Source: Rhodothermales bacterium
GTDB lineage: Bacteria > Bacteroidota > Rhodothermia > Rhodothermales > Bin80
NCBI GenBank assembly: GCA_028278205.1
Contig: JANQES010000120.1
Location: forward strand, 27,643 to 91,642
DNA: 64,000 nt
Reading direction: 5' to 3'
Below, one piece after another: positions 791-1,368 of this stretch (the stretch's first letter is position 1; the number at the start of each line of letters is the position of its first letter). The translations under genes and the position numbers were made by a program. The notes under the pieces were generated by a model, which did no database searches, was not told the DNA's origin, and saw only the letters and a program-made list of their open reading frames with translations.

Positions 791-867
791 CGGGGCGTAG
801 CTCAGTCCGGTAGAGCACTGCGTTTGGGACGCAGGGGTCGTCGGTTCAAATCCGGCCGCCCCGACCA
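791..867 (+). tRNA. tRNA-Pro(UGG)
   Basis: Cloverleaf; anticodon arm CTGCG-TTTGGGA-CGCAG; GGTTCAAATCC; encoded CCA. Confidence 0.97.
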
Positions 868-905: not shown

Positions 906-1233
906 GCGCCCGTAGCTCAACCGGATAGAGCAGCGGACTTCTACTGCATGTGGGCCGCCGGGGAGAAATCCTCGGCGTGTAAGTGGTCAAATTCGGGGAA
1001 GCCTAAGGAGGCCCTGTCCAAGAGTCCGTGGTCAAATTCCCAGTGATCTTCCTCTACGGTAATCCCGAGCCAAGTCCCAATGATTTTGGGAAAGGTGTAG
1101 AGACTAGACGGCCACCACCTACGTTCCCCGGTTTCATGAGACTGGGGAATAGGGTGAAGGGATAGTCCAGGGAGTTGGGAAACCAGCACAAACCTGAATC
1201 CGCAGGTTGCAGGTTCGAGTCCTGCCGGGCGTG
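906..1233 (+). tRNA. tRNA-Arg(UCU) split by a group I intron (exons 906-942 and 1197-1233)
   Basis: Joined exons give acceptor GCGCCCG/CGGGCGT, anticodon arm GCGGA-CTTCTAA-TCCGC and T arm GCAGG-TTCGAGT-CCTGC. Confidence 0.93.
943..1196 (+). ncRNA. Group I self-splicing intron, IC3/Azoarcus-like, 254 nt, no ORF
   Basis: Follows U, ends in G; core elements AAATTCGGGGAA (989-1000), AATCCCGAGC (1061-1070), GTGTAGAGACTAGACGG (~1095-1111), AAGGGATAGTCC (1157-1168); GAAA tetraloops in P2 and P9. Confidence 0.93.
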
Positions 1234-1292: not shown

Positions 1293-1363
1293 GGTGACGT
1301 GGCCGAGTGGCTAGGCAGAGGCCTGCAAAGCCTCGTACGGCGGTTCGAATCCGCCCGTCACCT
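1293..1363 (+). tRNA. tRNA-Cys(GCA)
   Basis: Anticodon arm GAGGC-CTGCAAA-GCCTC; acceptor GGTGACG/CGTCACC. Confidence 0.96.
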
Positions 1364-1368
1364 CCTTC

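Follow-up and report, generated by a model that had tools for sequence, protein, structure and literature searches.

A group I intron predicted in the tRNA-Arg(UCU) gene of a Rhodothermales family, with a probable relic of an antisense HNH endonuclease gene

This study concerns a stretch of 64,000 nucleotides (nt) from contig JANQES010000120.1 of a Rhodothermales bacterium, hereafter called the window, and in particular its positions 906-1233. Judged from the sequence, these positions are a genuine tRNA-Arg(UCU) gene that is split by a group I intron of a known class. Moreover, we consider it highly likely that the intron is of the compact IC3 type, that it belongs to a mobile lineage of introns residing in tRNA-Arg genes, and that the homing endonuclease gene of this lineage has been lost in the window's family except for a stump. 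Genomes are designated here by G-numbers, G000 being the genome of the window (6.86-Mb assembly, 89.9% complete), and loci by L-numbers. The split gene consists of the following parts:

906-942, plus strand: 5' exon of tRNA-Arg(UCU), with the acceptor strand, the D arm, the 5' strand of the anticodon stem, C32, U33 and the anticodon UCU (940-942)
943-1196, plus strand: group I intron, IC3-like, 254 nt, recognised by Rfam, by intron-aware ARAGORN and by covariation
1197-1233, plus strand: 3' exon of tRNA-Arg(UCU), starting with AAUCCGC, with A37, A38, the 3' strand of the anticodon stem, the variable loop, the T arm and the acceptor strand

Identification of the split gene

The anticodon loop (CUUCU/AA) is interrupted after U942, that is between bases 36 and 37, and the last base of the intron, G1196, is the omega G; all 21 family sequences finish with ...CCTG. 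The discriminator base of the tRNA is G1233 and the CCA end is not encoded. The Rfam model Intron_gpI (RF00028) was matched over its full length by window positions 931-1189 with 60.3 bits (E 6.3e-14), which exceeds the gathering cut-off of 50 bits, and the same result was obtained when the whole genome was searched. When introns were allowed, ARAGORN called a tRNA-Arg(tct) with the intron i(38,254) and a normal cloverleaf. Run without introns on the window, the program did not call the split gene and reported only the neighbouring tRNA-Pro and tRNA-Cys. Both searches had been proposed in a first-pass annotation, and they agree with its description of a 254-nt insert after base 36 that has a terminal G, GAAA loops, receptor-like motifs and a P1 helix, all of which were found where it had placed them. 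What it had overlooked is the unusual length of the window copy, which is due to an insert in the P5 loop.

Fold of the intron and covariation

The structure model comprises the cloverleaf and the helices P1, P2, P3, P4, P5, P6/6a, P8, P9.0 and P9 as well as the P7 pseudoknot, and all of its pairs are standard pairs in the window sequence. The elements of the ribozyme are the following:

940-954, plus strand: P1, UCU and AC (940-944) paired with GUGGG (950-954) as U.G, C-G, U.G, A-U and C-G
952-954, plus strand: the guide proper, GGG, with the splice-site wobble U942.G952
956-977, plus strand: P2, 9 bp, both partners having changed in 7 of 9 pairs, with the GAAA tetraloop L2 at 965-968
983-998, plus strand: P3 5' strand (983-988; P3' at 1110-1115), J3/4 AAA (989-991) and P4 5' strand (992-998; P4' at 1063-1069)
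1001-1060, plus strand: P5 arm, stem 1001-1011 with 1051-1060, containing the receptor-like CCUAAG (1002-1007) and UACGG (1055-1059)
1070-1095, plus strand: P6 and P6a, with P6a pairs changing on both sides in 6 of 6 cases
1100-1105, plus strand: P7 5' strand with unpaired A1101, partner 1164-1168, forming a pseudoknot with P3; its 5 pairs are invariant
1117-1155, plus strand: P8, containing the receptor-like CCUACG (1118-1123) and UAGGG (1150-1154); both partners have changed in 7 of 7 distal pairs
1170-1194, plus strand: P9.0 (1170-1171 with 1193-1194) and P9 (1174-1178 with 1183-1187), with the GAAA loop L9 at 1179-1182

Covariation was assessed in an alignment of 20 sequences, of which 19 are from Rhodothermales and one is an Arg(CCU) intron of a cyanobacterium. 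Pairing was found in 94.1% of 1697 cells, as compared with 34-44% when the partners were slid by 1-3 columns. Both sides have changed in 41 of the 86 model pairs, and none of 500 shuffles scored as high on any of five measures. The compensatory changes are located mostly in P2, P5, P6a, P8 and P9, and P3 also changes on both sides; P7 (5 pairs) and P6 (2 pairs) are invariant and thus display conservation without covariation. All 20 sequences have a U.G wobble at the splice site, and the pair that opens the intron part of P1 covaries (A-U in 10, G-C in 6 and G-U in 3). Furthermore, 64 of the 81 nested model pairs reappear when the precursor is folded by minimum free energy.

The tRNA-Ile(CAU) intron of Azoarcus sp. 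BH72 is an IC3 intron of about 205 nt. The window intron has the traits of this type, as it is compact, lacks P5abc, carries GNRA loops in L2 and L9 together with receptor-like motifs in P8 and P5, and interrupts an anticodon loop. The GAAA loops L2 and L9 presumably dock on the receptor-like motifs in P8 and P5, an assignment that we carry over from the Azoarcus ribozyme. For comparison, the Azoarcus type was represented by 20 betaproteobacterial tRNA(CAU) introns located at the same site. They resemble the window intron in size, helix set and the GAAA loops in L2 and L9, and share with it a 19-nt core string covering J6/7, P7 and P3', but they differ in the host tRNA and the guide. The likeness to the compact Azoarcus ribozyme that the first-pass annotation had pointed out is thus supported by the helix set and the L2 and L9 loops as well as by the clustering of the window intron with the betaproteobacterial tRNA(CAU) introns.

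Distribution in the Rhodothermales

The split gene was detected in 35 of the 36 genomes of the window's family. In 33 of them it is present at full length with 71-81% identity, and in G008 and G010 the intron is in pieces, at an N-gap or at a contig end. With its 254 nt the window copy is the longest of the family, 20 relatives having a length of 200-222 nt, and the guide is GGG throughout the family. Outside the family, 24 genomes were inspected, each representing a different family of the order. The exon halves are adjacent, and the gene is thus intron-free, in 17 of these genomes (95-100% identity); the intron is present in G044 and G058, a different intron in G060, and four genomes gave no clear result. 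A third carrier outside the family, G080, was found via a protein search. G080 has the intron together with an endonuclease gene and its congener G037 is intron-free, which points to recent mobility of the element. The move of the intron had been thought to be particular to the lineage of the window, which does not hold: the intron with the guide GGG is fixed family-wide and is found in three further families of the order as well.

The different intron of G060 (L171, G060:C1:22700-23180, family f25) has a length of 210 nt and interrupts the orthologous tRNA-Arg(UCU) gene after U34 (CUU/...G/CUAA). ARAGORN miscalls this gene as tRNA-Ser and Rfam finds nothing at the gathering score. Compared with the window intron, the host tRNA is the same, but the site (34/35 vs 36/37) and the lineage are different and a DNA search gave no match. 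Within one order, the same tRNA-Arg(UCU) gene has been invaded at two sites by two intron lineages.

An antisense endonuclease gene and its stump

The insert of the window intron contains the following feature:

1012-1050, minus strand: probable stump of an HNH homing-endonuclease gene in the P5 loop, aligning with the C-termini of intact relatives

Positions 1010-1051 read EDHWEFDHGLLDRA on the minus strand, which corresponds to about 13 codons, or about 40 nt, of the 3' end of the gene. Intact relatives end at the same place with ...NHHWEFDHGLLSL and ...NHHWELDHGHLDK, the C-terminal pattern being ...NHHWE(F/L)DHG(L/H)L. No intact endonuclease open reading frame (ORF) was found inside the window intron. 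Among 285 genomes of the order, an intact ORF is present in two, G044 and G080. In G044 the P5 loop contains an antisense ORF of 174 amino acids (L142:332-856) that matches Pfam HNH_2 (1.4e-6), and in G080 an antisense ORF of 170 amino acids (L148:1079-1591) that is 59% identical to the former. The same endonuclease family, also antisense and 45-51% identical, is encoded in the Arg(CCU) introns L082 (Phormidesmis) and L136 (Anaerolineales). The stop codons of these genes are located at precursor positions 81-83 (UCA of P3/J3-4) or 99-101 (P5). As the antisense ORF ends inside the ribozyme core, the same bases are constrained by the protein and by the ribozyme. Indeed, the P5/P4/J3-4 strands, read as their reverse complement, give the last codons ...LPRI (L142) and ...VPRI (L148) and the subsequent TGA.

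The exact 12-mer GTGGTCAAATTC occurs twice in the window intron, at 983-994 in the P3-J3/4-P4 strand and at 1028-1039 in the P5 insert. Read in antisense, the second copy gives the endonuclease codons E-F-D-H, and at the corresponding place the intact endonuclease genes agree with their own ribozyme core in 8-10 of 12 positions. The repeat is thus a side effect of the coding relic, and a fresh duplication or a decoy was rejected as its explanation. As RNA, the P5 insert folds no better than shuffled sequences (z 0.12).

At least 517 relatives of the endonuclease were detected in metagenome contigs. Among the best 80 of these, 13 are antisense inside a split tRNA-Arg gene (7 UCU, 6 CCU), 21 are located within 200 nt 3' of an intact tRNA-Arg gene (12 UCU, 9 CCU), 23 lie in or beside other tRNA genes and 23 have no tRNA gene nearby. 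Calls of a location inside a split gene for other tRNAs (Ile aat, Pyl cta and others) may stem from ghost exons produced by ARAGORN and were not used. Several relatives in metagenomes, for instance L179, L181, L182 and L190, are free-standing, with an intact tRNA-Arg(UCU) gene lying on the other strand about 2 nt beyond their end. They are located in tRNA clusters and represent the same protein family without an intron. Introns of about 610-620 nt in tRNA-Leu genes (CAA, CAG, UAA; L025, L045, L072, L078, L084, L102, L112 and L141) carry a second, different antisense HNH family (...CxxCHAEIHNP...). For many Leu(CAA) introns, our script does not find a U at position -1 together with a terminal G; these introns may be the 'Leu.3Cg' type with C at -1 that has been named by Williams (2020; 10.1101/2020.01.27.920355).

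Relationship to other tRNA introns

A scan for the 19-nt core string in one genome per species yielded at least 119 loci in many phyla. According to ARAGORN, the hosts among the matches listed are tRNA(CAU) (48), Leu(CAA) (17), Leu(UAA) (10), Arg(UCU) (7), Arg(CCU) (7) and others. A first tree of 76 rows was built from 56 of the 119 listed loci and 20 family rows, namely the window and 19 relatives, without the introns longer than 330 nt and those that lack the U/G junction required by the script. The genome G008 was left out for its Ns, and the long branches L037 and L067 were left out of the approximately unbiased (AU) test and of a larger tree. L-INS-i alignments were used for all trees.

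The Rhodothermales Arg(UCU) introns form one clade (support 100/99 and 99/98), which stands closest to Arg(CCU) introns from cyanobacteria and from Anaerolineales. Azoarcus-like tRNA(CAU) introns of Betaproteobacteria come next, outside the Arg clade (100/99). In a tree with three CCU rows, the UCU clade is nested in a CCU grade (99/87). Forcing the CCU rows together lowers the log-likelihood by 7.1 units (AU p 0.044), in a test for which the group had been chosen after the tree was seen and to which the G080 row contributes only 23 nt. When 13 metagenomic introns with an endonuclease gene were included (7 in UCU and 6 in CCU hosts), the Arg clade (96/98, 40 rows) collapsed into a polytomy in which four lineages are UCU-hosted and two CCU-hosted. 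Because the repaired and larger tree gives a polytomy, the claim of a CCU to UCU direction was dropped. A shared ancestry of the UCU- and CCU-hosted introns is well supported by the sequences. The proteobacterial CCU introns that were sampled (L055, L064, L091 and L134) form a clade that is separate from the window intron (100/99). This second deep clade also holds the UCU-hosted introns L037 (Vibrio) and L184. Since UCU-hosted copies are thus found in both deep Arg-site clades, at least two independent host switches must have occurred.

The exons of the window gene are native, as they match the intron-free Arg(UCU) genes of the order and match the Arg(CCU) tRNA of the same genome poorly (58 aligned positions match in tRNAs of 74 and 75 nt). 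Taken together, the suggestion in the first-pass annotation that a CCU-type intron has moved into a UCU gene stands in so far as the window intron shares its clade and its HNH family with CCU-hosted introns; the direction of the move does not, given the polytomy.

The same annotation had noted that the guide GGG would fit a CCU exon better than the actual UCU exon. This is indeed the case, the duplex energies being -2.7 kcal/mol for GGG/UCU, -4.5 kcal/mol for GGG/CCU and -3.1 kcal/mol for GGA/UCU. However, a change of GGG to GGA would gain just 0.4 kcal/mol at a terminal pair, and the guide is thus weak evidence of origin. GGG is present in all UCU-hosted introns examined at the site, which are 27 from Rhodothermales, 7 from metagenomes and, inspected by eye, L037, L124 and L057. 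The constant GGG could be a legacy of CCU hosts, or it could have been selected as a guide that serves two hosts. According to the latter idea, which is in our view rather doubtful, GGG would be kept on purpose, and the intron and its antisense HNH gene would shuttle between tRNA-Arg(CCU) and tRNA-Arg(UCU). Because a G opposite position 34 pairs with C or U, one ribozyme could splice both isoacceptors; GGA would lock the intron to UCU. If true, a two-host guide would explain why the G-to-A change occurs in 0 of about 37 UCU-hosted copies despite the free covariation of the neighbouring P1 pair. It would also explain why both hosts are present in both deep Arg-site clades and why the endonuclease family is located in or beside both kinds of tRNA-Arg genes.

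Comparison with known systems

Agrobacterium was reportedly the first host in which a tRNA-Arg(CCU) intron was found. In a survey of 5292 split tRNA genes, which fall into 21 settings, Arg.5Ug is one of the four classical kinds (Williams 2020; bioRxiv 10.1101/2020.01.27.920355). The window intron resembles this kind as it is located in a tRNA-Arg gene after the fifth base of the anticodon loop, with a U at -1 and a terminal G (CUUCU/intron...G/AA). The classical host anticodon is CCU and that of the window gene is UCU. The Arg.5Ug introns of tRNA-Arg(CCU) thus have the isotype, the site after base 36, the guide GGG and the compact IC3-type fold in common with the window intron, but their P1 has a C-G pair where the UCU host of the window has U.G. 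The CCU introns of cyanobacteria and Anaerolineales share in addition the clade and the endonuclease family. In the tRNA(CAU)-hosted copies examined, all of which have a length of 202-223 nt, neither an endonuclease gene nor a stump was found.

A passage in Flood et al. (2016; PMC4853749), which cites MacGregor et al. (2013a), describes an Arg(UCU) tRNA gene with a group I intron in Thiomargarita nelsonii and states that this gene had been overlooked by standard tRNA annotation. The gammaproteobacterial gene has the same type of host tRNA as the window gene, a likeness that rests on the description in that passage and not on sequence. The novelty that had initially been assumed is therefore lower, since the Arg.5Ug site is classical and split tRNA-Arg-TCT genes are already in print. 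Our literature searches, for which most subscription journals were outside reach, found no paper naming a tRNA-Arg(UCU) intron of the Rhodothermales and none that describes a tRNA-Arg intron with an HNH gene in antisense.

Sole Arg(UCU) gene and decoding of AGA

Apart from the split gene, the genome of the window encodes Arg tRNAs with the anticodons tcg, gcg, cct and ccg only, and a second match to the Arg(UCU) exons was not found in this 89.9% complete assembly. In five complete genomes of the family, an intron-free Arg(UCU) query recovers the split locus in two halves. The complete genomes G007 and G001 yielded no intron-free Arg(UCU) gene; their remaining matches of 75-80% are Arg (acg, cct, ccg), Met, Asn and Thr tRNAs and none is a second Arg(UCU). 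Candidates for a second Arg(UCU) gene at 88% in G001, G002, G004 and G006 turned out to be tRNA-Thr(UGU), and a match on contig C48 of the window's genome is a tRNA-Trp. In a crude ORF set, AGA accounts for 1.68 per 1000 codons and is used in 1256 of 2287 long ORFs. Since no other Arg(UCU) gene was seen, AGA can very probably be decoded only once the intron has been removed. A dependence on self-splicing had been predicted for the case that this is the sole UCU tRNA and is likely, as the genome check proposed along with it revealed no intron-free gene in the window's genome or in the two complete relatives.

The tRNA-Trp gene mentioned above belongs to an array of 20 tRNA genes that are located on one strand within 2.6 kb (C48:38000-40600) and include the unusual Arg(gcg), Arg(tcg) and Phe(aaa). 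The array is the source of most duplicate tRNAs of the genome, does not contain Arg(UCU) and has a mobile- or phage-derived appearance.

Proposed mechanism and alternative explanations

We propose that the Pro-Arg-Cys tRNA cluster is transcribed and that the intron would then fold into P1-P9. An external guanosine would attack after U942, which is held in the U.G wobble with the guide GGG. Subsequently, G1196 would occupy the guanosine site and the exons would be joined into a tRNA of 75 nt. The intron itself would derive from a mobile lineage of tRNA-Arg genes with both anticodons, CCU and UCU. This lineage would have been spread by an HNH homing endonuclease that the P5 loop encodes in antisense and whose last codons and stop overlap P5/P4/J3-4. 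The intron would have entered a native Rhodothermales Arg(UCU) gene and become fixed in the window's family, where the endonuclease gene was probably lost, the window genome having retained about 40 nt of its 3' end.

Several observations weigh against this proposal. The exon part of P1 consists of a single C-G pair flanked by two wobble pairs, P10 has one pair at most as read from the sequence, and P7 never varies, so that conservation is its sole support. The genome G003 (92% complete, 220 contigs) gave no match to the split gene and is the only such genome of the family. Rfam at the gathering score misses the introns of L142, L148, L143 and L171, and their membership therefore relies on the alignment to the window intron. 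The window's genome being 89.9% complete, a second Arg(UCU) gene may be present on the missing DNA. The HNH protein is a putative endonuclease. Finally, contigs from public metagenomes and metatranscriptomes give no usable sign of splicing. The joined form (942>1197) is present in three contigs of the DNA run X1 and in one RNA run. As it also occurs in a DNA run, it stems from intron-free relatives in the samples and not from splicing. The RNA runs cover small shares of the stretch, and some of their contigs span the splice sites or break off at 1196; contigs cannot show RNA ends.

With regard to the history of the intron, UCU might be the original host and the CCU-hosted copies might be derived, which is the reverse of the direction that the first-pass annotation had assumed. 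We regard this as possible, though on balance unlikely. The larger Arg clade (96/98, 40 rows) with its polytomy, in which UCU-hosted lineages outnumber CCU-hosted ones by four to two, is compatible with such a course, and so are the UCU to CCU ratios of 7/6 inside split genes and 12/9 beside intact genes among the best 80 of at least 517 endonuclease relatives. However, all UCU-hosted introns examined at the site have kept GGG, the perfect partner of CCU, the three-CCU-row tree nests UCU in a CCU grade (99/87; AU p 0.044), and the next outside relatives, the tRNA(CAU) introns, likewise have a C at position 34. It is barely conceivable that the split gene was imported as a whole from a CCU-bearing donor and that its anticodon was mutated afterwards. 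The first-pass annotation had allowed for this course, and tRNA-Arg CCU and UCU are one anticodon base apart, but the exons are 95-100% identical to the intron-free Arg(UCU) genes of the order, lie in the same Pro-Arg-Cys cluster, match the Arg(CCU) gene of the same genome at just 58 aligned positions and are clearly unlike the exons of the CCU-hosted relatives.

With regard to function, the split gene might be a pseudogene with a dead insertion, AGA being read by other means. That splicing is deduced from sequence, that P1 is weak (-2.7 kcal/mol) and that the P5 loop of the window copy contains extra unstructured sequence would agree with this explanation. It is nevertheless highly improbable: the core and the exons are conserved with compensatory changes in 35 of the 36 family genomes, 20 of 20 sequences have preserved the U.G at the splice site and 21 of 21 the terminal G, two complete relatives have no other Arg(UCU) gene, and AGA is present in more than half of the long ORFs. 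We also think it very unlikely that the second copy of GTGGTCAAATTC acts as a decoy that competes with the P3 strand for P3' (1110-1115) and thereby slows or gates splicing. The repeat is exact, about 0.002 such repeats would be expected by chance in 254 nt (a rough estimate that is not derived from a tool), and the second copy holds all six P3 bases. However, this copy is the antisense of the codons E-F-D-H, intact relatives match their core at 8-10 of 12 positions, the insert is in such form unique to the window genome, the copy cannot form P4, and the insert does not fold better than shuffles (z 0.12). Thus, a mobile IC3-type intron in a working tRNA-Arg(UCU) gene, from which the endonuclease gene has largely disappeared, is the explanation that we favour.

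Neighbouring genes and other elements of the genome

The split gene is the central member of a conserved Pro-Arg-Cys tRNA cluster, the order of which is also found in G044, G080, G058 and G008. Its neighbours are the following:

791-867, plus strand: tRNA-Pro(UGG), upstream member of the cluster
1293-1365, plus strand: tRNA-Cys(GCA), downstream member of the cluster

A terminator-like hairpin with a T tail (1384-1398) is located 3' of tRNA-Cys(GCA). Just 5' of tRNA-Pro, positions 726-785 form a long perfect hairpin of tandem heptamers (GATTTTG.../...CAAAATC). The 16-mer TTTTGGATTTTGGATT of this hairpin has 553 copies in the 6.86-Mb assembly, both strands being counted. These hairpins constitute a very abundant, heptamer-built family of palindromic repeats resembling repetitive extragenic palindromic (REP) elements, for which Rfam returned spurious sub-threshold matches to microRNAs only.

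The genome of the window contains a second group I intron, which is located outside the window on another contig (C120; L002, about 1071-1717) and interrupts a tRNA-fMet(CAU) gene after U33 (Rfam 56.7 bits). It harbours an intact sense ORF of 149 amino acids (L002:1097-1543, TTG start) that matches PDB 2OST with an E value of 2.7e-66. The title of this entry is 'Putative endonuclease', and we take it to be I-Ssp6803I, the endonuclease of the Synechocystis tRNA-fMet intron. Core-like matches at a second locus in many genomes suggest that the fMet intron is also widespread in the family. Like the lineage of the window intron, the Synechocystis intron is a tRNA group I intron with its own homing endonuclease, but this enzyme is of the PD-(D/E)XK type and encoded on the sense strand, whereas the window lineage has an antisense HNH gene, of which a stump is left in the window.

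Implications

The history of the window intron is modestly interesting and leaves the class of the element unchanged. The copies described here may be useful for studying the life cycle of mobile introns, as they include two relatives with intact endonuclease genes, a stump, clean loss of the gene and an intron-free sister species. Moreover, the unchanged guide GGG across both Arg isoacceptors offers a simple idea of how a guide may permit host switching. For the family of the window, standard tRNA finders give no tRNA for AGA, which could be misread as a missing tRNA or as a codon reassignment. Instead, a whole bacterial family appears to be reliant on a ribozyme for one sense codon.

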